Assembly (NCBI GenBank): GCA_964577955.1
Contig: CAZOAZ010000013.1
Span: forward strand, 48,284 to 112,283
Source of the DNA: an uncultured Bifidobacterium sp.
GTDB lineage: Bacteria > Acidobacteriota > Vicinamibacteria > Vicinamibacterales > CAVVIG01
Direction of reading: 5' to 3'
DNA: 64,000 nucleotides
The translations under genes and the position numbers were made by a program. Numbering within the stretch: the stretch's first letter is position 1; every line of letters starts with the position of its first letter. The notes beneath the pieces are model-generated. The model was not told the DNA's origin, made no database searches, and saw nothing but the letters and a program-made list of their open reading frames with translations. This document shows, piece after piece, positions 4,853 to 57,991 of the stretch.

Positions 4853-4866
4853 GCAAAGGCCAGACC
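4853..4866 (-). promoter_or_regulatory. sigma54 -24/-12 element (weaker) for the ABC exporter
   Basis: Minus strand tGG-tctggccttt-GC; 15 nt before the TTG start. Confidence 0.45.
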
Positions 4867-4911
4867 ACCTCGGCACCCGTTCAGCGGCGCTCTTTTTTGT
4901 AGTCCGGCAGC

Positions 4912-4943
4912 GGAGTTTTCCGGACGATGGTGAGATTTTCCCA
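4912..4943. promoter_or_regulatory. Tandem putative enhancer (UAS) boxes
   Basis: GGAGTTTTCC (4912) and GAGATTTTCC (4932), between divergent sigma54 sites. Confidence 0.55.
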
Positions 4944-4987
4944 ACCGCCGCAGCCGTCCCGGTCTCCAGCGGCGATCGGCGCGGCGT

Positions 4988-5001
4988 GGCGGATTTATTG
5001 C
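4988..5001 (+). promoter_or_regulatory. sigma54 -24/-12 element
   Basis: tGG-cggatttatt-GCa upstream of the ATG at 5035. Confidence 0.65.
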
Positions 5002-5034
5002 ACTGAGCCAGGACGCCTTCACCTGGAGATTCCC

Positions 5035-5418
5035 ATGATGAGTCCCGCGCCCTTCAGCTCAATCGGCGAGCTGCTCGAACGCAGCCTGAACATTCGTCAC
5101 GTCTATGGCGAGCCGGTGCATCGTGGCGACACGACAGTCGTGCCCGTCGCTCAGGTCGCCTACGTCTTCGGCGGTGGGGGCGGTCAGGCACCCGCTCGCG
5201 GGCACGGCCGCGTCGCGGATGCAGGTGCGGCAGACCAGGACGGACGGCGGGATGCGCAAGGGGCCGGCGGCGGTGGCGCGGTCCGCATGATGCCGGTCGG
5301 CGCCCTCGAAGTCGGACCGGAGGGCACTCGCTTCATTCACTTCCACCCGTTCAAGCCGCTGCTCGGCGCGGTAGCGGCCGGGCTCGTGGCCGGATGGCTG
5401 CTGGCGCGCCGCCGCTGA
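5035..5418 (+). CDS. GerW/YtfJ family protein
   Basis: RBS GGAG at 5025; VYGEPV...VVPVA, FGGGGG, GAGGGG...PVG and a C-terminal TM segment. Confidence 0.75.
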   Translation: MMSPAPFSSIGELLERSLNIRHVYGEPVHRGDTTVVPVAQVAYVFGGGGGQAPARGHGRVADAGAADQDGRRDAQGAGGGGAVRMMPVGALEVGPEGTRFIHFHPFKPLLGAVAAGLVAGWLLARRR

Positions 5419-5443
5419 CCGTCGCGAGCGACGAGCCCGCGGA

Positions 5444-5539
5444 CCGATCATCGCCGCCGAACGGTTCGGCACTCACGGGTGGATGCTCTGGAACCCGCGC
5501 AACGAGTACTCGGCGACTGATCTGGCGCCGCGCCACTGA
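5444..5539 (+). pseudogene. Orphan 3' fragment of a putative glycoside hydrolase (DUF4015-like) gene
   Basis: Translates IIAAERFGTHGWMLWNPRNEYSATDLAPRH*, resembling that family's C-terminal G-W-L-W-N motif; no start codon or upstream gene body. Confidence 0.45.
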
Positions 5540-5588
5540 CGACTTCGAGTGAATGGCCCGCCTGAAGTTCGTCCGGCCGTTCCAGCCG

Positions 5589-9034: not shown

Positions 9035-11032
9035 TCACAATCCCGACGGAAATGTCTCGGCCGCGTCGCCGGCCTCCCACAACGGCTCGCGTTCGAGCGG
9101 CTCGAGCGCGCGCGTCTGGTCGAAATGCAGCACGTAGTCGAACTGCTCGGCGAGGTTGGCGCGGAAATAGTGGCTCGGTCGTTCGGTCTCAGGCAGATAG
9201 AGGACGCCGATCGCGCGCTCCAGCCTCGGCGTCGCGACCGCCTGTCGCAAGCCGGGATCGCGCCGCAGCGGCAACAGGAACCGCGGCACACCGACCTCGT
9301 GGAACAGCCGTTCGTAGCTCCCCGCCAGCCCCGGGCGCACCCGCTTGCGCTCGGCCGGCCCATCCCACTCGGATGCCGCCGTCACGGTTCCGGTGTAGGT
9401 GGTGAATCCCACGTTCACGGCGCGATCGCCGTAGCGCTCGCGCACGAGCTGTCCGACGTTGAGCTCGCCGCGCGTGCTCATCTCCGTCGCCCGCGCATCG
9501 CCGAGGTGCGAGTTGTGGGCCCAGACCACCACGCGCGCATCGGGCCGCGTCCGCTCGAGAAAGCGCACCAGCTCCTGCAGCGTGTCCACCATGTGACGAT
9601 CCCGCAGGTTCCACGAATCGGCGCGTCCCAGGAACATCGTGCGGTAGTACTGCTCCGCGTTCCTGACGAGACGGGCGTTCTGTTCCGCGTAGAAGAACTC
9701 GTCGGCCGCGACGCGGCCGTCCCGGCTGGCATAGTCGGCACGCTGCCGGTGGAGCTCGAGCAACTGCGTGACGACCTCGCGCTCGCACGACGGGTGCAGC
9801 CCGGACGTGGTCGCATACCCGTATTCCTGCAACGCCTCGCCGAACTGATCGAAGCATCCGTAGCGGCGGCGGGCGCGGCGCGCGCCGTCCGGATCGACTT
9901 TGTCCAGGTACTGCAGCACCGCTTGCATCGAGGCTCTGAGGCTGTACAAGTCCAGCCCGTAGAATCCGGTGCGCTGGTCCGCGGGCCGTGCTTCGTTGTG
10001 CGTGCGCAACCAGCCGACGAAGTCGAGCACATCCGCGTTGCGCCACATCCAGGTCGGAAAGCGGCCGAAATCGCCGAGCGCCTGCACCGCGTCTTCGTCC
10101 GGACCGCTGCCCCGCACGTAGCGATTGATGCGGTACGCGTCCGGCCAATCGGCCTCGACCGCCACCGCTGAGAAGCCCTTCTCAACGATCAGCCGCCTGG
10201 TGATGAACGCGCGCTCGCGATAGAACTCGTGCGTGCCGTGGGTCGCTTCGCCGAGCAGGACGATGCGCGCGTCGCCGATCCCGTCAATCAGGGCGTCGTA
10301 CTGCGCCGGATCCCCCTTCAGCTGAAGCAGGCCGCCGCGCAGAGTTGCCAGCGCGGCGTCGGGCGTCGCGGCTGCCGCGTTCGCACTCGATGAGGCCGCC
10401 GCCAGCAGCTGTTGGACCTCAACGTCCGACGTTTGATCGAACGTCTCGTACCAGAGGCCAACCGCCTGCAGCGGCTCCGGCATCGACACGCACACCACTT
10501 CGTCGGCGATCGTGCCGAGATGGTCGCAGGTTTCGCGAGCCCCGACCGGCACGGCCACGACGATCCGCGCTGGCGACTGCTGACGCAACGCGAGAATCGC
10601 CGCCTGCATCGTCGACCCGGTGGCGAGGCCGTCGTCGACGACAATCACCGTCTTGTCGCGAACCGCCGCGGGAGGGCGAGTGCCTCGGTACAACCTGTCG
10701 CGCCGATCGAGCTCCAGGCGTTCGCGCACGGCCACCTGCTGCACGAGCGGGTACGGAATCCCGAGGTCGCGAATCAGATCGCGATTCAGCACTTCGATCC
10801 CGCCCGTAGCGATCGCGCCCATGGCGAATTCCTGATGCCCCGGCACGCCCAGCTTTCGCACCAGGAAGATGTCGAGCGGCAGGTTGAGCCGCGACGCCAC
10901 TTCGTGCGCGACCGGAATGCCGCCGCGCGGCAGTCCGAGCACGATCACGTCGGCGCGGCCCGTGTACTTGGTGAGTTTGGCGGCCAGCTGCCGCCCGGCG
11001 TCAAGACGATTGCGAAACCGCATGAAGCTCAT
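9035..11032 (-). CDS. Phosphoribosyltransferase / erythromycin esterase fusion (Rv2030c-like)
   Basis: PRT motifs LGLPRGG and VDDGLATG; EreA-like LLGEATHGTHEFY, AVEADWPD and WAHNSHLGD. Confidence 0.9.
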   Translation of the reverse strand: MSFMRFRNRLDAGRQLAAKLTKYTGRADVIVLGLPRGGIPVAHEVASRLNLPLDIFLVRKLGVPGHQEFAMGAIATGGIEVLNRDLIRDLGIPYPLVQQVAVRERLELDRRDRLYRGTRPPAAVRDKTVIVVDDGLATGSTMQAAILALRQQSPARIVVAVPVGARETCDHLGTIADEVVCVSMPEPLQAVGLWYETFDQTSDVEVQQLLAAASSSANAAAATPDAALATLRGGLLQLKGDPAQYDALIDGIGDARIVLLGEATHGTHEFYRERAFITRRLIVEKGFSAVAVEADWPDAYRINRYVRGSGPDEDAVQALGDFGRFPTWMWRNADVLDFVGWLRTHNEARPADQRTGFYGLDLYSLRASMQAVLQYLDKVDPDGARRARRRYGCFDQFGEALQEYGYATTSGLHPSCEREVVTQLLELHRQRADYASRDGRVAADEFFYAEQNARLVRNAEQYYRTMFLGRADSWNLRDRHMVDTLQELVRFLERTRPDARVVVWAHNSHLGDARATEMSTRGELNVGQLVRERYGDRAVNVGFTTYTGTVTAASEWDGPAERKRVRPGLAGSYERLFHEVGVPRFLLPLRRDPGLRQAVATPRLERAIGVLYLPETERPSHYFRANLAEQFDYVLHFDQTRALEPLEREPLWEAGDAAETFPSGL

Positions 11033-11601
11033 TTCTCTGGCGCGTGAGACGCGACCAACTCAAAGTAGTGCACGACCTTCTGCCCGTTTTCATCGGCGTA
11101 GAAGATCTTCACCCCGACCGCCGTCCGATCGACCGGCGCGGCGCCAGCGGCGGCGGCGCGCTCGGTCAGCCGTAACGTTTCGGTGACGCCGTTGGCGAAA
11201 CGGATGACGATCTCTCTGCGCGAACGGCTGATGCGGACGACGGTCCCTTCGCTGATCCGCAGCCCTTCGTCGCTGACTTGATCGATTTCGGCCGCCATCT
11301 CCCGTGTGCCGGACACCGAATAGTGCACGACGATGGTTCGCCCCTCCTGCAACCCCTCCAGGGCGTCGATACCCGGCCGCTTTCCGCCGTGGACGAGCAG
11401 GTTTTCAGTGAACGTGAAGGCGTGTTCGACGCCATCGATCGTCTTCACAATGATGATGTTCGCGGCTCGATACAACTTCTTCATCGTCCCTTCGAGAGCC
11501 AGGGTGCCGAGCACCGGCGGCGGCGATTGCGCGCGAAGTGGCGATCCGCTTGACAGCGTGGCGGCCAGAAGGCCAGCAGCAGCGATGGCTCGTGTGTTCA
11601 T
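11029..11601 (-). CDS. Hypothetical secreted protein (beta-rich, possibly two OB-like repeats)
   Basis: Signal peptide MNTRAIAAAGLLAA...; start and stop overlap the neighbouring genes. Confidence 0.6.
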   Translation of the reverse strand: MNTRAIAAAGLLAATLSSGSPLRAQSPPPVLGTLALEGTMKKLYRAANIIIVKTIDGVEHAFTFTENLLVHGGKRPGIDALEGLQEGRTIVVHYSVSGTREMAAEIDQVSDEGLRISEGTVVRISRSRREIVIRFANGVTETLRLTERAAAAGAAPVDRTAVGVKIFYADENGQKVVHYFELVASHAPEK

Positions 11602-12224
11602 GACGTCCTCGGCCCGACGCGCAGGCGGATGATGGTGAGGTACCGTTCTGGATCCCCGGCAAAGATCATCCCGGGGCCTTTGACGTACTCTTCTTCGTGG
11701 TCGCCGATCACCTCGAGGCCCTGTGCCGTGATGAAGCGGCGCAGACGTTCGATGTCGGGCTGCTCCGTGCTGTACGACCCGACATGAAGGACTTCGGCCA
11801 CGTCGCCGTACTCCCAGGTGGTGATGGCACTGGGCAGAGCACCGGCAGGGGCCGCCGCCAGAGCCGCGGTTTCCGACACCGGCAATGCGTACTGCCCGAC
11901 CCATCGGTCCTTCGGCGTGTCTTCCGGTCTGGGCCAGCGAGCGCGAGGCGCCGGCGGCCGTGACATCCTCGAGACGCCCGGCAGTGCGAAGTAGGTGCTG
12001 AACAGCTGCTTGAACGACGCCGCGCCCACCACGCTCGGATCGCCTGTGGCCTCCACAACCAGCATGCGTTGTGGGGGCAGATGCGTCAGCCGCGGCTCTC
12101 GCAGATCGGCAAACTGCGATGGATCGGGGCCACGGCGCAGCCAGACCGCCAGGAACGCGCCGCCGATGGCGACGAGCGCCGCGACGGCGATACCCCGTGC
12201 GGTGTTTCTTCCTGAGATCTTCAT
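11598..12224 (-). CDS. GyrI-like small-molecule-binding domain protein with N-terminal membrane anchor
   Basis: LVVEATGDPS, LHVGSYSTE and GDHEEEY...P...TIIR pattern. Confidence 0.7.
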   Translation of the reverse strand: MKISGRNTARGIAVAALVAIGGAFLAVWLRRGPDPSQFADLREPRLTHLPPQRMLVVEATGDPSVVGAASFKQLFSTYFALPGVSRMSRPPAPRARWPRPEDTPKDRWVGQYALPVSETAALAAAPAGALPSAITTWEYGDVAEVLHVGSYSTEQPDIERLRRFITAQGLEVIGDHEEEYVKGPGMIFAGDPERYLTIIRLRVGPRTS

Positions 12225-12238: not shown

Positions 12239-12252
12239 GCAATGCGCATGCC
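12239..12252 (-). promoter_or_regulatory. sigma54 -24/-12 element
   Basis: Minus strand cGG-catgcgcatt-GCt; 14 nt before the ATG at 12224. Confidence 0.7.
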
Positions 12253-12276: not shown

Positions 12277-12933
12277 TCAGTACCACAACGAAATCATGAG
12301 TCGCGTGAGGAAGAAGTCGACGGCGATCACCGCGACTGAACCGGCGACGACGGCGCGCGTCGTGGACCGCCCGACGCCCTGCGTGCCGCCGGTTGTCTGG
12401 AGCCCGACATGACACGCGATGCTAGCGTCCGCGATGACCGTCAGCACCGGCGCCATCAGTGTTCCGGCCAGGATGCGTGGCAGGACCAGCTTGCGAATCG
12501 GATCCGTCCCGAGGACGCGCAAGGCGCTGATCTGACTGGTGACTTCCATTGAGCCCAGTTCGGCGGCGATCCCCGCGCCCGCGCGCCCGCACCGCATCAA
12601 ACCGGTCAACACCGGTCCCAGGTTCTTGACCATCGTGGCGCTTACCAGCCGGCCCACGACCGGCCGGGCGCCGTACGCATCGAGCGTGATGCCACTCTGC
12701 AACGCGAGCGCCGCGCCGGTGAAGAACGCCGTCAGCATGATCACGGTTAGTGTGCCCACACCAACCACGTCGAGCTGCTCGATCATGTTGCGGACGTACC
12801 AGCGTTTGAACAGGAGGGCCCGACACGCCGCCGACATCATCAAGCAGTAAGTTTGAACTTCGAGCGCGATCGCCTTGAGGGTCTCGTCGATCCGACGCAC
12901 ACGGAGACCTCGCGCTGGAACCGGCAGTGACAT
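12277..12933 (-). pseudogene. mlaE: MlaE-family ABC permease with an internal in-frame deletion
   Basis: GRAGAGIAAELGSM and ALRVLGTDPIRKLVLPRI; LTVIADA joins directly to SIACHVG, so roughly 40-45 aa are missing; no mlaF or mlaD nearby. Confidence 0.65.
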
Positions 12934-13013: not shown

Positions 13014-13027
13014 GCAACAGCGATACC
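13014..13027 (-). promoter_or_regulatory. sigma54 -24/-12 element
   Basis: Minus strand cGG-tatcgctgtt-GCc. Confidence 0.6.
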
Positions 13028-13083
13028 GACCCTCTCCGCTTCGCATGGCCTGTGTCCGCAACCCATCTTGCCGAATGGTCCAG

Positions 13084-13112
13084 GCAAATTTTCGCGGTCC
13101 TGGGGAATTCCC
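13084..13112. promoter_or_regulatory. Tandem putative enhancer (UAS) boxes
   Basis: GCAAATTTTC (13084) and GGGAATTCCC (13103), between divergent sigma54 sites. Confidence 0.55.
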
Positions 13113-13168
13113 CTCGATCATCCGCCGCTCACACTCGAGAACATGGAGATTGGCCGCCAGCCGAAGTG

Positions 13169-13182
13169 GGTACGCGGTTTGC
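13169..13182 (+). promoter_or_regulatory. sigma54 -24/-12 element for the hsp20 operon
   Basis: gGG-tacgcggttt-GCc. Confidence 0.6.
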
Positions 13183-15014: not shown

Positions 15015-16826
<1,812 letters not shown>

Positions 16827-17267: not shown

Positions 17268-17281
17268 GGCACTCCGGTTGC
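17268..17281 (+). promoter_or_regulatory. sigma54 -24/-12 element for csbD
   Basis: TGGCAC-tccgg-TTGCT, a near-perfect consensus match. Confidence 0.8.
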
Positions 17282-17348: not shown

Positions 17349-17528
17349 ATGAAGCCAAGCACGAGAGATCGGGTCGAAGGCAAACTGCATGAAGTCACAG
17401 GGAAAGCGAAAGAAAAGTTGGGCCAGGTGACTCACAACCCGAAGCTGGCGGCCAAAGGCACCGCCGAAAAGCTGGCCGGCAAGGTCCAGGCGAAGGTCGG
17501 ACAGGTGAAAAAGGCATTCGGCCGGTGA
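17349..17528 (+). CDS. csbD: CsbD family stress protein
   Basis: DRVEGKLHEVTGKAKEKLG...GKVQAKVGQVK; RBS GGAGGAG. Confidence 0.88.
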   Translation: MKPSTRDRVEGKLHEVTGKAKEKLGQVTHNPKLAAKGTAEKLAGKVQAKVGQVKKAFGR

Positions 17529-21537: not shown

Positions 21538-21551
21538 GCAACACTCGTGCC
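21538..21551 (-). promoter_or_regulatory. sigma54 -24/-12 element for the ppsA operon
   Basis: Minus strand cGGCACG-agtg-TTGCc. Confidence 0.75.
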
Positions 21552-21605: not shown

Positions 21606-21643
21606 TGCGGAGGATTCCACGGGCGCTGCGAATTAGTTCCGCA
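21606..21643. promoter_or_regulatory. Tandem putative enhancer (UAS) boxes
   Basis: TGCGGAGGATTCCA (21606) and TGCGAATTAGTTCCGCA (21627), between divergent sigma54 sites. Confidence 0.6.
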
Positions 21644-21684: not shown

Positions 21685-21698
21685 GGCATCGCGGTTGC
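21685..21698 (+). promoter_or_regulatory. sigma54 -24/-12 element
   Basis: TGGCAT-cgcgg-TTGCc upstream of the BON gene. Confidence 0.75.
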
Positions 21699-29220: not shown

Positions 29221-29264
29221 CGCGCGGCCATCATCCGGGTCGCTGCCTGTGCGACCCGGCGATC

Positions 29265-41069: not shown

Positions 41070-41083
41070 GCAAACCGGTCGCC
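41070..41083 (-). promoter_or_regulatory. sigma54 -24/-12 element for the L,D-transpeptidase
   Basis: Minus strand TGG-cgaccggttt-GCA; 16 nt before the ATG. Confidence 0.7.
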
Positions 41084-45477: not shown

Positions 45478-48051
45478 TCAGCCGACGATGCCGACCGCGC
45501 CGAAAACCGCCGCCGGTGTCGTTCGCTCGCGCCCCCGAAAGAACCACTGTTTCGTGAGTTCGGCCGCGAGCATGTAGCACCCGGCCAGCAGGACGATCGC
45601 GCCCACCATGCTGGCCGGCAGCGCCTCGAAGCCGAAGAACGTCGCCCAGGGCACGTATGGAATGCCGATCGCGACGCCAATGAGAAGCACGGTCGACGTC
45701 AGCAACAGCGTGCCGGGCCGGCTGCGCCAGAACGGCCGCCGGGTCCGGACCACGAGCGCCACGACCAGTTCCGTCAGCAGCGACTCGACGAACCATCCGG
45801 TCCGAAAGCGCTCTGGCGAGGCGTGGAAGAACCACGCCAGGATCGCGAAGGTCGCCAGATCGAAGACCGAACTGAGCAGACCGAAGACGACCATGAACCG
45901 GCCAATCATCCGCAAGTCCCAGCGCTCCGGCCTTGCCACCAGTTCCGGATCGACGGCATCGTCGGCAATCCCCGCGGCCGGAACGTCGGACAGAAAGTTG
46001 TTCAACAGGATCTGCCCGGGCAACATCGGCAGGAACGGCAACACGGTCGATGCGAACGCCATGCTGATCATGTTGCCCAGGTTGGCGCTCATCGTCGTCA
46101 GCAAGTACTTGATCGTGTTGGCGAACGTGCGACGCCCTTCCTCGATCCCGCGCCGGATGACGTCGAGATCGTGTTCGAGCAGGACGAAGTCGGCGGTGGC
46201 CCGCGCCACATCGACCGCGCCGTCGACGGACAGGCTCGTATCGGCGGCCCGCATCGCCGGCGCATCGTTCACGCCGTCGCCCAGAAAGCCGACCACATGG
46301 CCACCCTTGCGCAGGGCGCCGATAATGCGCTCCTTCTGATTCGGATCGACCTCGACGAAGAGATCCGTGCGATCGACTGCCCGCCACAAGGCATCGTCGC
46401 TCGTGGCGTCAATCTCGTCGCCGCTCAGCATGCGGGCGCCTTGAATACCGACGAGGCTCGCGACGTGGGCCACCACTGACCGGCTGTCGCCGCTGATGAC
46501 CTTCACGCTGACGCCGAGCTTCGCCAGCGCGTGGATCGCCTGTGGGGCGTCGCTTTTCGGCCGGTCGAAAAACGTCAGGAATCCGAGAAACGAGAGATCG
46601 TGCTCGCTCGCGCGGTCGCACGGTTCATCGGGCTGGAGGTCGCGAGTGGCCAACGCGAGCACGCGAATGCCGCGACTGCTCCAGCGCTCGTAGCGGGCGG
46701 TCAGACGGCTCTGAACCGCGCTATCGATCGGCGTGCCGTCGGCGAGGCGGGCGCAGGCTTCGAGCACGCGGTGGAACGCGCCTTTGGTCACCAGCTGCCG
46801 GCGATACCCCGTGCGATAGGCGACGCTCAGCCGCTTGCGAATGAAGTCGAACGGAATCTCGCCGAGTTTTTCGACCGTTCCGAGATCGGGCCGCCCGGCG
46901 TCGAGAATCGCCGCGTCGAGCGGATTATCGAGGCCGGTCTGCAGCGCCGCGTTCAAGGCGGCGGCGCGCAACACGTCCGGCGACTCCGCGCCATCCGCGT
47001 CGAACGCGCCCTCGAGCTTGACGGCGCCTTCGGTGAGGGTGCCCGTCTTGTCGGTGCAGAGAACGTCGATGCTGCCAAGATTCTCGATCGCGTTCAGCCG
47101 TCGCACGAGCACGCCGTGCGCCGCCAGATTCGCCGCGCCACGTGAGAGGTTCACGGCAAGAATCGCGGGCAGCAGTTCGGGGCTGAGACCGACCGCAAGC
47201 GCGACGGCAAAGAGGAGCGTGTCGATCGGCGAGCGCGCACCCAACAGGTGCACGAGGACGATGGCCAGGACCAGGGCGAGCATCGCGCTGGTCAGGAAAT
47301 AGCCGAACCGGCGCAGTCCGCGTTCGAATTCCGTTTCCGGGGCGCGCTCGAGCAAGTGGGCGGCGATGCGCCCGAATTCGGTGCGCGCGCCCGTGTTGAC
47401 GACCACGCAGGTCCCCCGTCCGCTGCGGACGTTGGTGCCCAGAAAGAGCGCGTTGGTTCGCGCGGTGAGCGGCGCATCGGCCGGAACGGTCCCGACGGTC
47501 TTGGCGACTGGAAAGCTTTCGCCGGTCAGGACCGCTTCGTTGATGAACAGCTCGGTCGCATCCAGGAGCAGCGCATCGGCCGGGACCAGGTTCCCGGCGC
47601 TCAGCAAGACGACATCGCCCGGCGCGAGCTCTTCGATCGGGACGTTGGTGAGCTGACCGTCGCGGAGTACGCGCGAGGTCGTGCGAATGCGCGACTGGAG
47701 CGCGGCGGCGGTCATTTCCGCCGCGTATTCGCGCCAGAATCCGATCGCGACGGTGGCGACCACAATGGTCAGGACCACCGAGGCGTCGATCCATTCGCGC
47801 GAGGCGCCCGAGGCGACAGCGGCGAAGATCAGAATCGCGAGCAGCGGATTGCGGAACTGCTTGAGGAAGACCCGCATCCCGGTCAGCTCGCGGTGGGATC
47901 CGATCCGGTTGGGTCCTCCGTCGCGCAACCGGCGCGCCGCCTCCTCGGTACTGAGGCCGAGCACGCTCGCCGTCAGCGCAGTCAGGACGGCGGCGGCCGG
48001 CTCGGCCCAATAGCGAAGCTCGCGCGCCGGGCCGGGATCTGACGCCTTCAC
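45478..48051 (-). CDS. mgtA: Magnesium-translocating P-type ATPase
   Basis: LTGES, LSPELLP, DKTGTLT, GDGVNDAP and MLPGQILLNNFLSD. Confidence 0.9.
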   Translation of the reverse strand: MKASDPGPARELRYWAEPAAAVLTALTASVLGLSTEEAARRLRDGGPNRIGSHRELTGMRVFLKQFRNPLLAILIFAAVASGASREWIDASVVLTIVVATVAIGFWREYAAEMTAAALQSRIRTTSRVLRDGQLTNVPIEELAPGDVVLLSAGNLVPADALLLDATELFINEAVLTGESFPVAKTVGTVPADAPLTARTNALFLGTNVRSGRGTCVVVNTGARTEFGRIAAHLLERAPETEFERGLRRFGYFLTSAMLALVLAIVLVHLLGARSPIDTLLFAVALAVGLSPELLPAILAVNLSRGAANLAAHGVLVRRLNAIENLGSIDVLCTDKTGTLTEGAVKLEGAFDADGAESPDVLRAAALNAALQTGLDNPLDAAILDAGRPDLGTVEKLGEIPFDFIRKRLSVAYRTGYRRQLVTKGAFHRVLEACARLADGTPIDSAVQSRLTARYERWSSRGIRVLALATRDLQPDEPCDRASEHDLSFLGFLTFFDRPKSDAPQAIHALAKLGVSVKVISGDSRSVVAHVASLVGIQGARMLSGDEIDATSDDALWRAVDRTDLFVEVDPNQKERIIGALRKGGHVVGFLGDGVNDAPAMRAADTSLSVDGAVDVARATADFVLLEHDLDVIRRGIEEGRRTFANTIKYLLTTMSANLGNMISMAFASTVLPFLPMLPGQILLNNFLSDVPAAGIADDAVDPELVARPERWDLRMIGRFMVVFGLLSSVFDLATFAILAWFFHASPERFRTGWFVESLLTELVVALVVRTRRPFWRSRPGTLLLTSTVLLIGVAIGIPYVPWATFFGFEALPASMVGAIVLLAGCYMLAAELTKQWFFRGRERTTPAAVFGAVGIVG

Positions 48052-48064: not shown

Positions 48065-48949
48065 CTATTTCCGGACCGTCAGCACGGGACAGTCCGCACG
48101 GCGGACGAGCTGCTGTGCCGTCGAGCCGAAGAGCGCGAGGTCGGCCACGCTTCGCCCGTGCACACCGAGGACGATCAGGTTCGACTGCTCCTCGGCGGCG
48201 ACCCGGAGAATCTCGTCGGACGGCCGTCCATGGCTGATGCGAGCCGAGCAGCGGCCACGAAATCCTTCGGGCTCGAGGCCTTCGAGGCGCGTCCGTGCGG
48301 CCGCCTCGCGGCGGGCGCGGAACGACTGCAGCGCCTCGGCTTCCGCACGCGGGATCTCGCCAAACGCCGGCGCCGGCGGTTCATGCCAGGGCCACTCGAG
48401 CACATGAAGCAGCGTGATCCGCGTTTCGCCGCCGAGCGAACCGGCGAGGAGAAACTCCAGCGCTGCCAGCGAGCAATCAGAAAAATCGACCGCGCACAGC
48501 ACCCGCGCGGATGCGAGTGAAAAGGCCGGCGCACTGTGCGGCGGCACGGTCAGGACGGGACACGACGCCCTCCGCAGCACCTTCTCCGCGACCGATCCGA
48601 GCATGGCGCGGTCGAAGCCGCTCGCGCCGTGCGTCCCGATGACGATGAGGTCGGCATGCAGGGTGTCCGCCGCGGCGAGGATCTCGGTGGCCGGCCGGCC
48701 TGGCCGCGTCACGAGTTCGATACCGTCAGACCCGGCGTCGACCCCAATACGCGCCAGAATGGATTCAGACAGGCCGCCGTGACACGCGGTCAACTCCTCC
48801 GCTCGGTCGGTCCCGCTTTCAATCACGCGCAGCGCGGTCAGGCGTGCGCCGGTCCACCGGGCACAGGCCACGGCCTGCGCCAGCGCCATCAAAGACGGCT
48901 CGGACAGGTCGAACGGACAGAGGATGCGTTCGATGCGCGCGGCAGCCAT
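48065..48949 (-). CDS. Universal stress protein (tandem domains)
   Basis: RILCPFDLS and RVLCAVDFS; two G-HG...GS motifs. Confidence 0.92.
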   Translation of the reverse strand: MAAARIERILCPFDLSEPSLMALAQAVACARWTGARLTALRVIESGTDRAEELTACHGGLSESILARIGVDAGSDGIELVTRPGRPATEILAAADTLHADLIVIGTHGASGFDRAMLGSVAEKVLRRASCPVLTVPPHSAPAFSLASARVLCAVDFSDCSLAALEFLLAGSLGGETRITLLHVLEWPWHEPPAPAFGEIPRAEAEALQSFRARREAAARTRLEGLEPEGFRGRCSARISHGRPSDEILRVAAEEQSNLIVLGVHGRSVADLALFGSTAQQLVRRADCPVLTVRK

Positions 48950-48952: not shown

Positions 48953-49222
48953 TCAGTTCCGCGTCAAGTCCGCGCGAACGTAGCGGCCGGTGTGGGTACA
49001 GCACAGGAAACCGCAGCTGACCAACTGATCCAGAAGCGCATGCGCATCGGGTGAGCGGAGCTGCCAGAGGCGCTCGACCTGTGGCTGCGTCAAGGAGAGT
49101 CCCGGCATTTCACCGTACTCGGCGCGAACGATTCGGCTCCAGTCGCCGACGCCGCGAGGGGAACCTGGCCCGTTCGACTCGCGTGCGTTCTGATCCACTG
49201 TGACGTTGAGTGTGTTCGCCAT
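48953..49222 (-). CDS. Small hypothetical protein with a winged-helix-like motif
   Basis: VRAEYGEMPGLSLT..Q..RLW...LLDQLV..GFL...GRYVRA. Confidence 0.7.
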   Translation of the reverse strand: MANTLNVTVDQNARESNGPGSPRGVGDWSRIVRAEYGEMPGLSLTQPQVERLWQLRSPDAHALLDQLVSCGFLCCTHTGRYVRADLTRN

Positions 49223-49249: not shown

Positions 49250-49263
49250 GCAAGAACAGTACC
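49250..49263 (-). promoter_or_regulatory. sigma54 -24/-12 element for the wHTH-usp-mgtA-osmC operon
   Basis: Minus strand cGG-tactgttctt-GCc. Confidence 0.6.
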
Positions 49264-49317
49264 GCTTCGACTGTCGCCAATCCCCGCTGTTGTCCGACGC
49301 ATGCCACTCGCGGCTGC

Positions 49318-49348
49318 GGAATTGTTCCCGTCGACAGTGGAATCTTCC
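49318..49348. promoter_or_regulatory. Tandem putative enhancer (UAS) boxes
   Basis: GGAATTGTTCC (49318) and GGAATCTTCC (49339), between divergent sigma54 sites. Confidence 0.6.
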
Positions 49349-49405
49349 AGGGGGACAGTGACCGCACACCAGCTCAGATTCCCCGACCGGGGTGCGATGA
49401 CATTC

Positions 49406-49419
49406 GGCACAACCGTTGC
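49406..49419 (+). promoter_or_regulatory. sigma54 -24/-12 element
   Basis: cGGCAC-aaccg-TTGCc. Confidence 0.75.
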
Positions 49420-49474: not shown

Positions 49475-49768
49475 ATGACCGAGAAAGCCTGCAACTGGGA
49501 ATCGTTCAAGGCCGAGGGCGCCAGCATCATGGACAAGATCAAGGCGCTCGTCCGCGAAGGCAACGTTCGACGTGTCGTCATCGAGCATGACGGGCGGACG
49601 ATCGCCGAATTTCCGCTGACGGTGGGCGTCGTCGGTGCGGTGCTCGCACCGCCGGTCGCGGCCATCGCCGCCGTCGTCGCGCTGTACAAGGAATGCACGA
49701 TCCACGTCGAGCGCACCGAGCCGGCCGCGGCCGATCCGGCGGCTCCGAAGGCCTCCGCGGCGCGCTAG
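49475..49768 (+). CDS. DUF4342 domain protein
   Basis: RBS AGGAGG; KIKALVREGNVRRVVI...EFPLTVGV. Confidence 0.85.
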   Translation: MTEKACNWESFKAEGASIMDKIKALVREGNVRRVVIEHDGRTIAEFPLTVGVVGAVLAPPVAAIAAVVALYKECTIHVERTEPAAADPAAPKASAAR

Positions 49769-49781: not shown

Positions 49782-50459
49782 GTGCGGAGGACGCTACTCG
49801 TCTGCGGCCTTCTCTCGTCGCTGCTCTACGCCGCGATGTGCGTGTTCGTCGCGAGGCAGTGGGAGGACTACAGCTCAATCTCGCAGACCGTGAGCGAACT
49901 CTCGGCCATCGACGCGCCGACACGTGGCATTTGGGTGCCGCTTGGCTGCGTCTACGCCCTTCTGACCATCGCCTTCGGATGGGGCGTGTTCCGGTCGGCG
50001 GGGCAAAGCCGTGCGCTGCGCGTCGCCGGCGGTCTGCTCGTCGCCTACGGCGTCGTCTGCGCGACATGGCCGCCGATGCATTTGCGCGAGGTGCTGGCAG
50101 CCGGCGGCGCGACGCTGACCGACACAATGCACCTCGTCTACGCCGCCGCGGCGGTGTTGCTGATGCTGCTCGCCATGGGATTCGGCGCCGCCGGGCTCGG
50201 CCGGCGCTTCGGCCTCTACTCCATCGCCACCATGGTGCTGCTCGCCTTGTTCGGCGGCTTGACCAGCCTGGAGGCTCCGGGCGTCGACGCGGGTCTACCC
50301 ACGCCGTGGATCGGGCTCTGGGAACGGATCAACATCGGCGTGTTCTTGCTGTGGGTGGTGGTGCTGGCCACGACGCTCCTGCGTACGCCGACATCTTTAG
50401 ACTCCCGCGCCTCGGCGCGCCGCTCATGGGCACTGTTGTCGCCGCTGAACCAGAAGTGA
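49782..50459 (+). CDS. DUF998 domain membrane protein
   Basis: YSSISQTVSELSA, TDTMHL and GLWERINIG. Confidence 0.8.
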   Translation: MRRTLLVCGLLSSLLYAAMCVFVARQWEDYSSISQTVSELSAIDAPTRGIWVPLGCVYALLTIAFGWGVFRSAGQSRALRVAGGLLVAYGVVCATWPPMHLREVLAAGGATLTDTMHLVYAAAAVLLMLLAMGFGAAGLGRRFGLYSIATMVLLALFGGLTSLEAPGVDAGLPTPWIGLWERINIGVFLLWVVVLATTLLRTPTSLDSRASARRSWALLSPLNQK

Positions 50460-50650
50460 GCCCATTGCGGGCGGGACCTTCGTTGGCGCGTCGGCGACCG
50501 CGGCGTCTCCTCATCGCGGCGCCGCCAGTCTTGCTGACAAGCATGTACGCCGCGTTTCACGTCCTCGTATGGCCGTTCGGCCTGCGTCTCGGCTACTTCA
50601 CCGGCACGTTTTTCCCGATTCTTCGCGGGCCCTCGCAGATAGCGGAATAA
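50456..50650 (+). pseudogene. Short hydrophobic ORF, possibly the 5' remnant of a membrane protein gene
   Basis: GTG overlaps the DUF998 stop (GTGA); 64 aa with hydrophobic LLTSMYAAFHVLVWPFGLRLGYF, ending at the next enhancer boxes. Confidence 0.3.
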
Positions 50651-50676
50651 CTCCCACCCGCACGAAAACTTTCGCA
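50644..50676. promoter_or_regulatory. Tandem putative enhancer boxes (degenerate)
   Basis: GGAATAACTCC (50644) and GAAAACTTTCGCA (50664). Confidence 0.4.
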
Positions 50677-50729: not shown

Positions 50730-50743
50730 GGCACGACGTCTGC
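50730..50743 (+). promoter_or_regulatory. sigma54 -24/-12 element
   Basis: cGGCACG-acgt-CTGCt. Confidence 0.6.
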
Positions 50744-50790: not shown

Positions 50791-52173
50791 ATGTCAGGAA
50801 CTCAGCGCTGGAGCGCCCACTCCTTCCTCGCCGTCGCCGCACTGCTCGCTCTCCCCATTGCCGCGGGCGCGGCTGAACCGGCCAAGCGGGTGACGTTCTC
50901 GAAGGACGTGGCGCCGATCTTTCAAGCCAAGTGTCAGTCGTGTCACGAGCCGGGATCGATTGCGCCGATGTCGCTGGTCACCTTCGAGGAGGCGCGCCCC
51001 TGGGCCAAGTCGATCCGCAATCGCGTCGCGACCCGCCAGATGCCGCCGTGGCACATCGACCGCAGCGTCGGCGTGCAGAAGTTCAAGAACGACATGTCGC
51101 TGACCGACGAGCAGCTGGACACCGTCGTGGCCTGGGTCGATCAGGGCGCGCCGCAGGGCGATCCCGCCGATCTGCCGCCCGTCCGCCCGATTTCCACGTC
51201 GCTGTACTGGCAGGCCGAACGCGACGGCTATGGTCCACCCGACATCGTCGTCAAGTCGGGCGAACAGACGATGCCGGCGCTCCATCAGGATGAATGGTGG
51301 CGGCCGCTCGTGGACATTCCGATCACCGAACCGCGCTGGGTGCGCATGGTCGAAATCCGCCCCTCCAATCTGCAGGGACGCAAAATCCTTCACCACTCGA
51401 TCGCCTATCAGGTGCTGGTCCCGGAGAACGTGGACGCCGTCAACACCGGCGTCGGACGTGGCTTCCCCGCCGGCGGCAGCGCCGACGACCGCGTCAATCG
51501 CCGGCCGCAGCTGATGGAATGGGCGATCGGCAAGGGCTACGACCGCTACATGGACGGCACCGGCAAGCTGATCATGCCGGGCGAAAAGATTTCGTGGGAC
51601 GAGCACATTCACGCGGCCGGCGAGGACATCACGGCCGGATCGGAGCTCGGGCTCTGGCTGTACCCGAAGGGCGAAGAGCCGAAGAAGCGGACGTACTTGA
51701 TCGCCTTCAGCGGGCTCAAGGACGGACCCGGACGGCTCGACATCCCGCCGAACTCGATCGCCCACACCGAAGGATTCACGGTGCTGCGTGAGAACACGAT
51801 CATCACCAACTTCCAGCCGCACTTCCATCTGCGCGGCAAGGCGATGCAGGTCGAAGCGATCCTGCCTGACGGGCGGACGCAGGTGATCAGCTACGTGGAC
51901 AACTTCAACTTCAACTGGATGACGAACTACATCTACGCCGAAGAGGCGTCGCCGGCGTTCCCGAAGGGCACGATCATCCACGTCACCGCCTTCTACGACA
52001 ACACCAAGGCCAACAAGAACAATCCCGATCCGGATCAGTGGGTCGGCTACGGCGATCGCACGGTCGACGAGATGGCGCACGCCTGGATGAACGTGGTCTA
52101 TCTGACCGACGCCGAGTACCAGACCTGGCTGGCCACACACAAGCCGGCCGGCGCGGGCACACAGAACCAGTAG
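50791..52173 (+). CDS. Exported monoheme cytochrome c fused to a copper type II (PHM/DBH-like) monooxygenase-like domain
   Basis: Signal peptide; CQSCH...MPPW; ILHHS, EHIH, PHFHLRG and DEM; RBS AGGAGG. Confidence 0.7.
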   Translation: MSGTQRWSAHSFLAVAALLALPIAAGAAEPAKRVTFSKDVAPIFQAKCQSCHEPGSIAPMSLVTFEEARPWAKSIRNRVATRQMPPWHIDRSVGVQKFKNDMSLTDEQLDTVVAWVDQGAPQGDPADLPPVRPISTSLYWQAERDGYGPPDIVVKSGEQTMPALHQDEWWRPLVDIPITEPRWVRMVEIRPSNLQGRKILHHSIAYQVLVPENVDAVNTGVGRGFPAGGSADDRVNRRPQLMEWAIGKGYDRYMDGTGKLIMPGEKISWDEHIHAAGEDITAGSELGLWLYPKGEEPKKRTYLIAFSGLKDGPGRLDIPPNSIAHTEGFTVLRENTIITNFQPHFHLRGKAMQVEAILPDGRTQVISYVDNFNFNWMTNYIYAEEASPAFPKGTIIHVTAFYDNTKANKNNPDPDQWVGYGDRTVDEMAHAWMNVVYLTDAEYQTWLATHKPAGAGTQNQ

Positions 52174-55664: not shown

Positions 55665-55688
55665 CGGACGATCGGCCGGCCGCCGCGA

Positions 55689-55922
55689 CTACTTGCAACC
55701 ACACCCGCCGCTCTGCACGCCGAAGCCGCCGGCGGCGGCTTCGCGCGCTTCCTGCCAGTGGGCGGCGTATGCCGACGCCGACCTGTCGGCATCGAAGATC
55801 ATGCAGGGGTCGGCGAGACGACCGCGCTGCCAGGGTTGAACCGTCGCGCAGCCGCCGCTGGCCAGCGCGACCAACAGCGCGGCGAACGCTGCCGCCCGTG
55901 CGGCGCGTCGATCGGTCGTCAT
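55689..55922 (-). CDS. DUF4266 lipoprotein
   Basis: Lipobox GGC; VQPWQRGRLA...EAAAGG.G...GGCGCK. Confidence 0.9.
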   Translation of the reverse strand: MTTDRRAARAAAFAALLVALASGGCATVQPWQRGRLADPCMIFDADRSASAYAAHWQEAREAAAGGFGVQSGGCGCK

Positions 55923-56410
55923 GGTGCCTCCGCAAGAAGCTGACTGATTTCCGCCTGGTAGCGGTCGAGAATCTTGGTCGAGTAGCCGATGTGCGTGAAT
56001 CTGATCACGCCTTTGCGATCGACGACAAACGAACTCGGCATCCCCTTGACGTTGAAGGCGCGAGGAGCCTCGCCCTTCGGATCGAGCGCAACCGGCATCA
56101 CGTGCGGATGCTCCGCCAGGAACGCGTCTGCCTGCCGGCGGTCCTCGTCGACGTTGATCGCCAGCACCTCGAGCCCGCGCGCGCGTTCGGACTGATACAA
56201 CGCGTCAAGGGCGGGAAACGACGCGCGGCACGGAACGCACCAGCTTGCCCAGAAGTCGACGACCAGGACGCTCCCTTTGTAGTCAGTGGCACGCACCAGG
56301 GTGCCATCAATGAGACGCAACGGGGTGTTGGGGAGCGTCGCGGGTGCGACCGCTTCAGTCCCGGCGAACGTGCTGACGACAATCCCGACCACGAGCGCTG
56401 CGCGAATCAT
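55919..56410 (-). CDS. TlpA-family thiol:disulfide oxidoreductase
   Basis: VDFWASWCVPC and GMPSSFVVD. Confidence 0.9.
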   Translation of the reverse strand: MIRAALVVGIVVSTFAGTEAVAPATLPNTPLRLIDGTLVRATDYKGSVLVVDFWASWCVPCRASFPALDALYQSERARGLEVLAINVDEDRRQADAFLAEHPHVMPVALDPKGEAPRAFNVKGMPSSFVVDRKGVIRFTHIGYSTKILDRYQAEISQLLAEAP

Positions 56411-56443
56411 TCTCACAAAAGCTCCAGGCAATGAGGACCGCGA

Positions 56444-57514
56444 CTACCTCACGGGGACGCGAAGTCCGGCTGATGCAATCGCGGCTTCGAACCCGTTGTC
56501 GCTCCGATACCGATCATACTGAAAGGTCAGCGCCGTTCCCGGCGGCAACCCGAAGAGCCCGCGACGCGGCGAGAGCGCAATCTTCCCGGTATACAGATCC
56601 GACGCGAACGGCTCGAGACGAAAATCGGCGGTGAAGAACTGGGGCGTGCCGCTGTACTCCGGTTCGTAGAAATACGCGCCGGTTTGCGCCGACCGACGAT
56701 AAACGGCGCCAGCGAGCAGCGCCGGCGAGAAATGGTGCGACAGCCCCACCGACCACGCGTTGGCGTGAATCTGCCAGTCGTCCGCGTAGCGCCGATAATC
56801 GGCCTCCAGATAGGTTTCAGCCGGAAGCGCCTGGCGCAGGCGGGCGGTCACGGTCTGTCGGGTTCGCACATCCGGCACATGGCCGAGCATGAGCGTGCCG
56901 CCGACATCGGCACGAAGAAACGGATTGTCCTGATAGCCAAGCAGGCGCGCGAATTCATAGCCAGCCTGGACGATCGTCAGCTTCGAAAGGACCTGGGTGA
57001 GCGACACATAGGCGTTATGGCTGAACTGATTCTCCCGCTGGACGGTGGGATGCAGCTTTGGTTGATTCAGCGACACGGTGTAGCCGCCCGCCAGCGTGGT
57101 GTTGTCGGCTCGAAAGTTGCGGGCGAGTGACGTCAAGAGCGTGGTCGAGCGGTAGAAGTTCTCCTGGCTGTAGGAGCCGCCAACCGTGAATTTGACGGCG
57201 TCGAACTTGCGCGTCATCGACCCGCCGGCCTCCTGCCGGCGGCTGTCCGCGCCGTCATGGTGGCAGCGGGCGCACGAATTCGACGCCGCCGAGATCGCAT
57301 CGAGGCCGTAGCTGATCCGAAGGCTCGTCCGATCGGTGACATCTCTCGTGAAATCGACGGTCGGACTGAAGACCGAGACCGTACGCGAGTCCTGAAAGAC
57401 ATGCATCTGGACGTTGACCTCGTTGCCCTGCGCCCGTCCCAGGGTCACCGACGCAACCCACAGCGCGGACACGGCAGCGGCGGCGAGCACGGTGCGGCAG
57501 CGCATCATCGTCAT
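56444..57514 (-). CDS. DUF3570 outer-membrane beta-barrel-like protein
   Basis: Signal peptide; DAISAAS, YRRYADDWQIHA; alternating beta-strand pattern. Confidence 0.8.
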   Translation of the reverse strand: MTMMRCRTVLAAAAVSALWVASVTLGRAQGNEVNVQMHVFQDSRTVSVFSPTVDFTRDVTDRTSLRISYGLDAISAASNSCARCHHDGADSRRQEAGGSMTRKFDAVKFTVGGSYSQENFYRSTTLLTSLARNFRADNTTLAGGYTVSLNQPKLHPTVQRENQFSHNAYVSLTQVLSKLTIVQAGYEFARLLGYQDNPFLRADVGGTLMLGHVPDVRTRQTVTARLRQALPAETYLEADYRRYADDWQIHANAWSVGLSHHFSPALLAGAVYRRSAQTGAYFYEPEYSGTPQFFTADFRLEPFASDLYTGKIALSPRRGLFGLPPGTALTFQYDRYRSDNGFEAAIASAGLRVPVR

Positions 57515-57517
57515 TCT

Positions 57518-57937
57518 TCAGCGGCGCTCCGCTGCGTCGTAGACCACCATCCAGCGAAACACCAGCGCGGCACGGGCCGTGGCGTCGCCGCTGAAGTACC
57601 GATACATGCTGCCGCCAGGGGCGGACGTCACGACCAGCGGGCTTTGCGCGTCTCCGGGTCGCTGTCCGTCGAGCACGTCGGCGTACGACGCGACTGAATA
57701 CCCGCCTTCGCGCTCGCGCGCCCCATGACAGCTGGCGCAATCGGCATCGAGAATGGGTTTGATGTCCTGAACGTAGGCCAGCGGTCGGGGGGCGAGCGAC
57801 GAGGGGCCAAACGGAAAGCCCGGGTCGGACCGATCAGTCGCCCCTTGCTGCCGCACGCATGACGTGGTTGCCGCCAGCAGAACCACGACGCACGCGGCCG
57901 AAACGAACGGTCCGAGATGGTAGGTTGGCATTCGCAA
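57518..57937 (-). CDS. Small c-type cytochrome lipoprotein (planctomycete cytochrome c-like)
   Basis: TSC lipobox; YVQDIKPILDADCASCHG. Confidence 0.7.
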   Translation of the reverse strand: MRMPTYHLGPFVSAACVVVLLAATTSCVRQQGATDRSDPGFPFGPSSLAPRPLAYVQDIKPILDADCASCHGAREREGGYSVASYADVLDGQRPGDAQSPLVVTSAPGGSMYRYFSGDATARAALVFRWMVVYDAAERR

Positions 57938-57977
57938 AGACGCGGTTCGAATTCACACCCGCCTCCCCATCGACAAA

Positions 57978-57991
57978 GCAAACCTGATGCC
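57978..57991 (-). promoter_or_regulatory. sigma54 -24/-12 element for the cytochrome c-DUF3570 operon
   Basis: Minus strand cGGCAT-caggt-TTGCt. Confidence 0.7.

Follow-up and report, generated by a model that had tools for sequence, protein, structure and literature searches.

Is a dense cluster of stress and dormancy genes governed as one regulon and, if so, by which regulator? This question is raised by a 64,000-nt stretch of DNA, hereafter the window, from an uncultured Bifidobacterium sp. that GTDB places in the Vicinamibacterales of the Acidobacteriota (assembly GCA_964577955.1, contig CAZOAZ010000013.1, positions 48,284 to 112,283). Vicinamibacterales are among the commonest soil bacteria, and to our knowledge almost nothing is known about gene regulation in this order. 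Seventeen elements of the sigma-54 (-24/-12) type stand at operon heads in the window, and a preliminary interpretation made from the DNA letters (the sequence-only reading) had held that most of the 64-kb island is one regulon under the local two-component system. Our analysis upholds this proposal in part: 12 of the 17 promoters share an upstream enhancer, and five stand without it. We consider it fairly probable that the island is a clustered stress/dormancy regulon, in which predicted sigma-54 promoters with a shared enhancer would be served by a local FixL-like kinase and an NtrC-type activator.

Sigma-54-type promoter elements

Our gene map, built from codon usage, Pfam and NCBIfam, comprises 64 genes and leaves 8.8% of the window (66% G+C) non-coding. 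All 17 GG-N10-GC elements of the sequence-only reading were recovered, each at its coordinate and on its strand. As it had noted, most of them end in TTGC (15 of 17, the exceptions being CTGC at 30520 and 50730) and start with GGCA (11, the others being three GGTA, two GGCG and one GGTC). Its caveat that bare GG-N10-GC is common was justified: the window holds 1225 matches, and the 112 in non-coding DNA compare with 108 expected. A comparison of motif density with shuffled background, which it had recommended, thus leaves the bare pattern at background level, whereas the fuller motif is 5-7 fold more frequent than in shuffled sequence. GGYA-N6-TTGC has 13 matches versus 2.56 expected; 100 dinucleotide-preserving shuffles never attained this number, and non-coding DNA holds 12 of the 13 (binomial p 2.7e-12). 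GGCA-N6-YTGCY has 17 matches in the window versus 2.35 expected. The canonical TGGCAC-N5-TTGCW, allowing two mismatches or fewer, yields 24 matches in the whole window versus 22.2 expected and so is not enriched, but 13 of these 24 are non-coding (p 1.9e-8); this search is therefore informative only once coding and non-coding DNA are separated.

The local promoter consensus is cGGCAY-N5-TTGCyCT, and 11 of the 17 sites are within two mismatches of the canonical 16-mer, one of them being a perfect match. When scored leave-one-out with a 20-nt position weight matrix (PWM), 14 of the 17 reach 11-21 bits. In a scan with this PWM the non-coding gaps are bimodal, each having a strong site or else no score over 8 bits, and we therefore regard the list of 17 as essentially complete. 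The elements were also said to be aimed at the downstream start codon, and indeed every site is oriented to its adjacent gene, 15-114 nt before a plausible start codon; in co-directional gaps, six of six sites share the orientation of the flanking genes. The elements are asymmetric, with TT before GC in 15 of 17 and no mirrored AA after GG, and their flanks have no mutual similarity beyond the motif.

The 17 sites thus have the GG and GC doublets 10 nt apart in an extended context, and they occur above chance, in non-coding DNA and oriented toward genes. This behavior supports their assignment as predicted sigma-54 promoters. Two other assignments were considered and excluded: promoters of extracytoplasmic function sigma factors, because the rigid 10-nt GG/GC spacing is incompatible with -35/-10 geometry, and a repeat element, because the flanks are dissimilar.

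A shared upstream enhancer

A palindrome with an A/T core recurs in the regions upstream of these promoters, and de novo motif search by expectation maximization (EM) defined it as the 12-bp cGGrAWWTTyCCg. The palindromes are paired 19-21 bp apart, i.e. about two helical turns, and eight such pairs serve 12 of the 17 promoters. For 11 promoters the proximal palindrome is centered 50-71 bp upstream of the -24 GG, and for the remaining one (28332) the distance is 104 bp. Upstream activating sequences are expected about 80-150 bp before the transcription start, and the tandem palindromes of the 12 promoters, centered 50-125 bp upstream of the -24 GG, occupy such positions. Tandem dyads two helical turns apart are the classic arrangement of the NtrC family, including ZraR and NtrC. 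Each of the four divergent promoter pairs (4853/4988, 13014/13169, 21538/21685 and 49250/49406) has a single central enhancer pair, nearly equidistant from the two promoters.

Cross-validation was carried out by leaving out one region at a time and comparing it with 3000 random window segments of equal size. All eight regions (15.6-26.3 bits) score above every one of the 3000 segments. The pairs common to two divergent promoters are CGGAGTTTTCCG-N8-TGAGATTTTCCC at 4911-4942 (26.3 bits versus a null maximum of 15.5) for 4853(-) and 4988(+), GGCAAATTTTCG-N7-GGGGAATTCCCC at 13083-13113 (19.3 versus 15.3) for 13014(-) and 13169(+), CGGAGGATTCCA-N9-CGAATTAGTTCC at 21608-21640 (15.6 versus 14.9, the weakest of the eight) for 21538(-) and 21685(+), and CGGAATTGTTCC-N9-TGGAATCTTCCA at 49317-49349 (20.5 versus 15.0) for 49250(-) and 49406(+). 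The remaining ones are CGGGAAATGCCG-N9-CGGAGATTTCCG at 28444-28476 (24.6 versus 16.0) for 28332(-), GGGGATTTTCCG-N8-AGGGAAAGTCCG at 29191-29222 (19.9 versus 15.5) for 29265(+), CGGGAAATGCCG-N9-CGGAGTTTTCCG at 32682-32714 (24.4 versus 16.0) for 32778(+), and CGGAATAACTCC-N8-CGAAAACTTTCG at 50643-50674 (18.2 versus 14.9) for 50730(+).

The specificity resides in the paired arrangement alone, since a single-copy enhancer PWM is unspecific and finds copies inside genes as well. Searches with the consensus GCGGAA-N2/3-TTCCGC, allowing three mismatches or fewer, were at background level because the GC-rich flanks dominate, and they were replaced by EM motif discovery, PWM scoring and a pair-spacing test. 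The shared enhancer, which is kept with orthologues of the local activator (see below), provides direct sequence evidence that the 12 promoters have one common regulator. That the local activator is the protein that binds the palindromes is suggested by their co-occurrence. As a separate observation, 28443-28477 and 32681-32715 are near-identical over 35 bp (GCGGGAAATGCCGC-N7-CCGGAG[A/T]TTTCCGC) and stand before different operons, one with universal stress protein (USP) and alcohol dehydrogenase (ADH) genes and the other with BON and GroEL genes.

The local regulators

The sequence-only reading had pointed to an enhancer-binding protein with an intact GAFTGA motif in the window, and this is borne out: an activator composed of a receiver domain, an AAA+ domain with GAFTGA and an HTH_8 domain is encoded next to a sensor kinase. 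This NtrC-family response regulator (43587-44960, +; Pfam Response_reg, Sigma54_activat and HTH_8) has the features of a bacterial enhancer-binding protein (bEBP), namely the phospho-acceptor Asp of the receiver, Walker A and GAFTGA of the AAA+ domain, and a Fis-type helix-turn-helix (HTH); its translation contains GESGTGK (Walker A), GAFTGA and LLD. The closest structures in the PDB are Aquifex NtrC1/NtrC4, NtrC and ZraR. It scores under all NCBIfam equivalog cut-offs (AtoC, the best hit, 456 versus 714 bits; NtrC, 406 versus 559) and therefore belongs to an unnamed subfamily.

The sensor histidine kinase (41632-43470, -), divergent from the activator gene, has the Pfam architecture PAS-PAS-(haem-PAS)-HisKA-HATPase. 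Its third PAS domain is about 55% identical to the haem domains of FixL (PDB 8js5/1d06/1dp6, E 2e-41), and the haem ligands are aligned: the proximal His in EHDSYMARY, the R in ARY and the Arg in IIGIGR. The best NCBIfam model is FixL, at 418 bits and hence under the 850-bit equivalog cut-off. The protein unites, as FixL does, a haem-PAS with proximal His and FG-loop Arg with HisKA/HATPase, and no LuxR/GerE or CRP-family protein that could act as FixJ or FixK was found among the window genes scanned. A FixL-like kinase with a predicted haem-PAS sensor fits the hypoxia reading.

Downstream of the kinase gene lies a single-domain receiver protein (41097-41483, -; Pfam Response_reg, E 2e-26). Caulobacter FixT is likewise a single-domain receiver, and we speculate that the window protein might be a phosphate sink or a FixT-like feedback element. 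No autoregulatory sigma-54 promoter was found when looked for before the kinase, receiver and activator genes. A sigma-70-like GTGACC-18-TATACT ends 8 nt before the activator ATG at 43587, and the regulator genes appear to be sigma-70-driven. Given this position of TATACT, the activator gene itself appears leaderless.

Related loci in other genomes

A scan of one genome per species placed the closest relatives of the activator, with 60-73% identity, only in Vicinamibacterales and other metagenome-assembled genomes of Acidobacteriota (six loci, L001-L006, 123 kb), a distribution that points to the probable lineage of the window. An exact-match search of public assemblies with the activator sequence gave no hit. 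The neighborhoods of these orthologues encode a PAS kinase, a single-domain receiver, USPs, HSP20, PpsA, BON, a P-type ATPase and ADH. In these loci we searched for a composite in which a sigma-54 site is preceded at 45-115 bp by an enhancer pair, with both PWMs trained on the window only; the test across genomes is thus independent of the sequences of the relatives. Five of the six loci contain the composite, which has six occurrences in the 123 kb surrounding the orthologous activators and none in 1.145 Mb around 74 non-orthologous activator loci. The genes behind it are USP and BON (L002), PpsA (L003) and three hypothetical genes. Looser versions precede HSP20 (L003 and L004), the divergent ADH/HSP20 (L003) and BON/P-type ATPase (L002) genes and the receiver gene, and in L002 the BON orthologue has a pair resembling 32682-32714 before it. 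The recognition helix NRDQ[IV]RYRIEKF is near-invariant in the orthologues and differs in all other activators examined.

Some further features of these loci were observed. GAFTGA is kept in the window, L001 and L002, and enhancer-bearing promoters of the sigma-54 type are still present in the L003-L006 loci. Paralogous sigma-54 activators stand two or three side by side in L001 (12156-13277), L004 (8228-9799) and L005 (5043-6527). In L006 a sigma-54-type site at 11427(+) directly precedes the gene of the single-domain receiver, which hints at feedback control of the receiver in that locus.

Predicted promoters and operons

Of the 64 genes, 40-47 have a site of matching orientation ahead of them. 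They encode HSP20, a CBS pair, a nitroreductase, FtsH, CsbD, two BON proteins, five USPs, GroEL, an OmpA-like protein, HtrA/DegP, OsmC, a P-type ATPase, phosphoenolpyruvate (PEP) synthase, Zn-ADH, an MlaE-like permease, a YkuD transpeptidase, a redoxin, cytochrome-c proteins and a fusion of phosphoribosyltransferase (PRTase) and erythromycin esterase. This is a stress/dormancy set.

In the first part of the window, GGTCTGGCCTTTGC (4853-4866, -) is a weak element heading an ABC exporter gene (2978-4837), with enhancer copies centered 50 and 70 bp upstream and a TTG start 16 nt past the -12 C. Divergent from it, GGCGGATTTATTGC (4988-5001, +), weak by the local PWM and with two mismatches to the canonical form, heads a YtfJ-like gene (5035-5418); the enhancer copies are 51 and 71 bp upstream, and the Shine-Dalgarno (SD) sequence GGAGA precedes an ATG at 34 nt. 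GGCATGCGCATTGC (12239-12252, -; 11.2 bits leave-one-out) lies in a 52-bp gap after the MlaE-like gene and heads an operon of 11598-12224, a hypothetical gene, the PRTase/erythromycin-esterase-like gene 9035-11032 and a hydrolase gene; the ATG is 15 nt past the -12 C and no enhancer was found within 200 bp. The fusion encoded at 9035-11032(-) shares its two-domain architecture with M. tuberculosis Rv2030c, a member of the hspX operon and DosR regulon (PMC4410610). GGTATCGCTGTTGC (13014-13027, -; 16.8 bits) heads the MlaE-like permease gene (12277-12933), and its divergent partner GGTACGCGGTTTGC (13169-13182, +; 15.6 bits; SD GAGAGGAG) heads HSP20 (13226), the CBS pair (13754), nitroreductase (14394) and FtsH (15015-16826); for both, the enhancer copies are 61 and 80 bp upstream.

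The sole perfect match to TGGCAC-N5-TTGCW is GGCACTCCGGTTGC (17268-17281, +; 18.7 bits), which heads CsbD (17349-17528) and has no enhancer pair within 200 bp. GGCACGAGTGTTGC (21538-21551, -; 16.4 bits), with an ATG 15 nt past the -12 C and an enhancer copy 62 bp upstream, heads a secreted hypothetical protein (20903-21523), a DUF3300 protein (20037-20906) and PEP synthase (17596-20040), while GGCATCGCGGTTGC (21685-21698, +; 17.1 bits; SD GGGGAGGA) heads BON (21743-22306) and HAD-IIB/P-loop (22303-24045) genes. GGCACGACAGTTGC (28332-28345, -; 17.4 bits) heads 27893-28306, and its transcript probably continues to a double USP gene, a hypothetical gene, a USP gene and Zn-ADH (24049-25026); SD GGAGGA leads to an ATG at 26 nt, and the enhancer copies are 104 and 125 bp upstream. 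The top PWM score, 21.4 bits, belongs to GGCATGGCGGTTGC (29265-29278, +), which heads an esterase-like gene starting at 29293 or 29377 and running to 30501, with an enhancer copy 68 bp upstream and a GTG 15 nt past the -12 C. At the mirror position, 61 bp from the enhancer copy at 29191, the GG-N10-GA element GGTGGCCCCCAATTTGATGG (29123-29136, -) precedes a hypothetical gene (28480-29100) that has SD GGGAGG followed by ATG. This element may be a degenerate 18th promoter with GA for GC at -12, possibly also served by the pair at 29191-29222.

GGCACGATCTCTGC (30520-30533, +; 16.3 bits), in a 47-bp gap, heads HtrA/DegP (30549-31970) and a DUF6064 gene, with an ATG 16 nt past the -12 C and no enhancer within 200 bp. 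GGCATTGCTCTTGC (32778-32791, +; 15.4 bits; SD AAGGAG) heads an operon extending to 38750 with BON (32844), an ABC ATPase, GroEL (34360-35985), an OmpA-like protein, a metallophosphoesterase and DUF4389, and has enhancer copies 69 and 90 bp upstream. GGCGACCGGTTTGC (41070-41083, -), weak by the local measure and with two mismatches to the canonical form, heads a YkuD L,D-transpeptidase (39368-41053) and an AAA_28 gene; it lies 13 nt past the stop of the receiver gene and 17 nt before the ATG as counted from the -12 C, and no enhancer was found within 200 bp of it.

GGTACTGTTCTTGC (49250-49263, -; 12.5 bits; SD AGGAG) heads an operon of a small ORF (48953-49222), a double USP (48065-48949), a P-type ATPase (45478-48051) and OsmC (44999-45460), with enhancer copies 59 and 80 bp upstream. 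Its divergent partner GGCACAACCGTTGC (49406-49419, +; 13.7 bits; SD AGGAGG; enhancer copies 62 and 83 bp upstream) heads DUF4342 (49475-49768) and DUF998 (49842-50459) genes. GGCACGACGTCTGC (50730-50743, +; 15.2 bits; SD AGGAGG; enhancer copies 61 and 81 bp upstream) heads a cytochrome-c-domain protein (50791-52173) and two hypothetical genes (to 53667). Finally, GGCATCAGGTTTGC (57978-57991, -; 20.5 bits) heads a small cytochrome-like gene (57518-57937), DUF3570 (56444-57514) and a redoxin (55919-56410). Its upstream region is atypical, with GGAATTCC just 24 bp upstream and two GCGGGATTG copies. Between this site and the cytochrome c gene at 58079(+), i.e. in 57992-58078, the GCGGGATTG copies are direct and 20 bp apart and CCGGAATTCCGC is 24 bp from the -24; this arrangement may represent an enhancer variant whose spacer is shortened.

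At six promoters the start codon (4837, 12224, 21523, 29293, 30549 and 41053) lies 15-17 nt past the -12 C, so that their transcripts are predicted to have 5' untranslated regions of about 2-5 nt, i.e. to be near-leaderless sigma-54 transcripts. Five of these six close starts are the first start of a long ORF, and GTG 29293 is an alternative to the gene-map start at 29377. At the remaining promoters, SD sequences of the GGAGG type are found 26-81 nt downstream.

At the right-hand side, a respiratory cluster (58529-63915, -) encodes a multihaem cytochrome c, cytochrome b, a Rieske protein and subunits I and II of a haem-copper oxidase (CoxA/B). Neither a sigma-54 site nor an enhancer was found in this cluster, which adjoins the island and apparently lies outside the regulon. 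At the opposite edge, 1-2481(+), truncated by the window edge, encodes a GNAT domain fused to an ADP-forming acyl-CoA synthetase, the architecture of Pat-like acetyltransferases, and no sigma-54 site is visible for this gene. Rfam and tRNA scans of the window found nothing, and ten small or hypothetical ORFs have no annotation in NCBIfam and Pfam.

Comparison with known systems

The sequence-only reading had also stated that hypoxia regulons of similar gene content do not use sigma-54. This statement does not hold, as M. xanthus NmpR is an NtrC-like regulator of a sigma-54-dependent hypoxia regulon with 7 promoters and 23 genes (PMC11841059). Among the genes under its control are those of a CBS protein, a USP and a P-type ATPase, and two dyad sites, S1 and S2, precede each promoter (PMC11841059). 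The window resembles NmpRSTU in its NtrC-like regulator, paired dyads, CBS, USP and P-type ATPase targets, extra single-domain receiver and haem-based upstream kinase. It differs in the sensor, which is a FixL-type haem-PAS kinase here and a protoglobin domain in a two-kinase relay there, and in organization, with a single island of 12-17 promoters and about 45 genes, in a different phylum, rather than 23 genes scattered over the genome. The NmpR site GCGCA-N5-TGCGC, allowing one mismatch or fewer, occurs 12 times in the window versus 15.7 expected and never in the promoter-upstream regions. No globin domain was found among the window genes, which accordingly do not have the hallmarks of an NmpR regulon.

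With FixL the kinase shares a haem-PAS of about 55% identity, the proximal His and distal Arg, and presumably the low-oxygen signal. Unlike FixLJ-FixK of rhizobia, Caulobacter and Burkholderia, its predicted partner is an NtrC-type sigma-54 activator and not a LuxR-type FixJ. No FixK/FNR box was found at operon heads. The box TTGAT-N4-ATCAA, allowing two mismatches or fewer, was rejected as a candidate: its 19 matches exceed the 8 expected (0 of 100 shuffles reach this number), but essentially all are in coding sequence, and the excess is probably an effect of codon composition.

In gene content, the island is similar to the DosR regulon and to Lxa: several USPs, HSP20 (hspX-like), a nitroreductase (acg-like), a CBS pair, a P-type ATPase, plus the PRTase/erythromycin-esterase fusion. 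Earlier work had already pointed out how alike the DosR, Anr and Lxa gene sets are, and the low-oxygen locus Lxa comprises about 50 genes in about 50 kb (PMC12071387). Like Lxa of Burkholderia cenocepacia, the island is a contiguous locus. However, Lxa has been proposed to be under FixLJ-FixK, and DosR, a NarL/LuxR-type regulator, acts together with sigma-70 and GAF-haem kinases, whereas transcription in the window would, on our prediction, require sigma-54 and an AAA+ activator that uses a different operator. Neither a NarL-family DosR regulator nor a GAF kinase was found among the window genes, so that the overlap with DosR is in target content alone.

An enhancer shared by divergent sigma-54 promoters is itself familiar. 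In the E. coli zraP-zraSR system, one set of ZraR sites between two divergent sigma-54 promoters serves both, and the window activator resembles ZraR, AtoC and NtrC. The window differs from zraP-zraSR in having four such divergent pairs in one locus, and also in targets, signal and motif.

Discussion

We propose that the kinase (41632-43470) would sense falling oxygen through its FixL-type haem-PAS, a domain recognized from sequence with a presumed signal, and would phosphorylate the NtrC-type activator (43587-44960), as their adjacency suggests. The activator would bind the two cGGrAWWTTyCCg palindromes about 60 and 80 bp upstream of the -24, for which it is the putative binder, and would then oligomerize and remodel the sigma-54 holoenzyme at GGCAY-N5-TTGCyCT, turning the island on. 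The four central enhancer pairs would fire both divergent promoters. The promoter-like elements with their statistics, the shared enhancer with its conservation and the domains of the regulators are seen in the sequences themselves. The kinase partnership, the link between activator and enhancer, the oxygen signal and the presence of RpoN are the parts of this model that we infer.

Several observations weigh against this model. Five of the 17 promoters (12239, 17268, 30520, 41070 and 57978) are without a canonical enhancer pair; they may have another activator or a distant enhancer, or may be weaker calls, and among 12239, 17268, 30520 and 41070 three are directly behind a same-strand upstream gene. 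Three sites score weakly, i.e. 4853 (7.7 bits), 41070 (7.6 bits) and 4988 (-2.7 bits), and these are our lowest-confidence sites; 4988 and 41070 are nearer to the canonical T..GG/TTGCA form than to the local consensus. The local consensus in turn departs from the canonical one at -26 (C/G, not T) and -11 (C/T, not A/T). Besides the regulators and the 58.5-64 kb cluster, several other genes have no site. The gene rpoN is not among the window genes, and its presence elsewhere is indirectly implied by the GAFTGA activator. The orthologues in L003-L006 (e.g. L003:9812-11293; 60-67% identity) have GAFTDA and not GAFTGA. As for the tests, the enhancer PWM was trained on the window itself, and the non-orthologous control loci are mostly from other phyla with a different base composition. 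The signal of the predicted haem-PAS could be NO, CO or redox state in place of oxygen, and another protein could bind the palindromes.

Three other explanations were considered, all of which we regard as less likely than the model above. The promoters might be genuine sigma-54 promoters, subsets of which are controlled by several bEBPs encoded elsewhere, with the local system serving few operons or none. The five promoters without a canonical pair would then be readily accounted for, and the two or three paralogous activators in L001, L004 and L005, together with an assignment of the palindrome to the local activator through co-occurrence only, point in the same direction. We nevertheless judge this explanation unlikely, because the 12 other promoters share one motif in one geometry, the composite follows the orthologous activator and is absent around the 74 other activator loci, and conservation of the HTH recognition helix coincides exactly with the presence of the motif.

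Alternatively, the palindrome pairs could be operators of a factor that is not a bEBP, such as a repressor or a co-activator, with the promoters being activated from elsewhere or by activators in solution. Tandem dyads about 85 and 105 bp before the predicted start correspond to the classic NtrC-family layout, exemplified by S1/S2 of NmpR (PMC11841059), and the pairs occur only upstream of sigma-54 sites, symmetrically between divergent promoters. This explanation consequently seems improbable to us, although a 12-bp GGRA-WW-TYCC palindrome is low in information and single copies are found inside genes. We give still less credence to the view that the GG-N10-GC elements are not promoters at all, being due to chance or to an intergenic repeat or palindrome GGCA-N7-TGCC of another function. 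It can appeal to the background frequency of the bare pattern, to the unenriched canonical matches (two mismatches or fewer) in the window as a whole, and to nine sites reading TTGCC, which form a partial palindrome with GGCA. It is at odds, however, with a fuller motif 5-7 fold over shuffles and almost entirely non-coding, with the asymmetry and gene-directed orientation of the sites, including all six that lie in co-directional gaps, with their dissimilar flanks, and with the same element before orthologous genes in other genomes.

A sigma-54 hypoxia regulon as such is already known from Myxococcus NmpR, and there is no new principle here. To our mind it is evenly balanced whether a FixL-type haem sensor and a sigma-54 bEBP with an undescribed operator, the tandem cGGrAWWTTyCCg, govern the island of about 45 genes as a third, independently evolved solution that parallels DosR and Lxa and includes near-leaderless sigma-54 mRNAs. 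The locus gives a testable model consisting of a sensor, an activator, an operator, 12-17 promoters and about 45 target genes, and the operator and promoter models can be used to annotate the regulon in metagenome-assembled genomes. It also suggests that a hypoxic-dormancy set of USPs, HSP20, nitroreductase, CBS, P-type ATPase and PRTase-esterase turns up again in different phyla under regulation that was rebuilt more than once, as DosR with sigma-70, as FixLJ-FixK, as NmpR with sigma-54, and here as a FixL-like kinase with a bEBP and sigma-54. Without their activator, sigma-54 promoters remain inactive, and therefore this wiring, if true, would provide tight on/off control of a persistence programme in oxygen-fluctuating soils.

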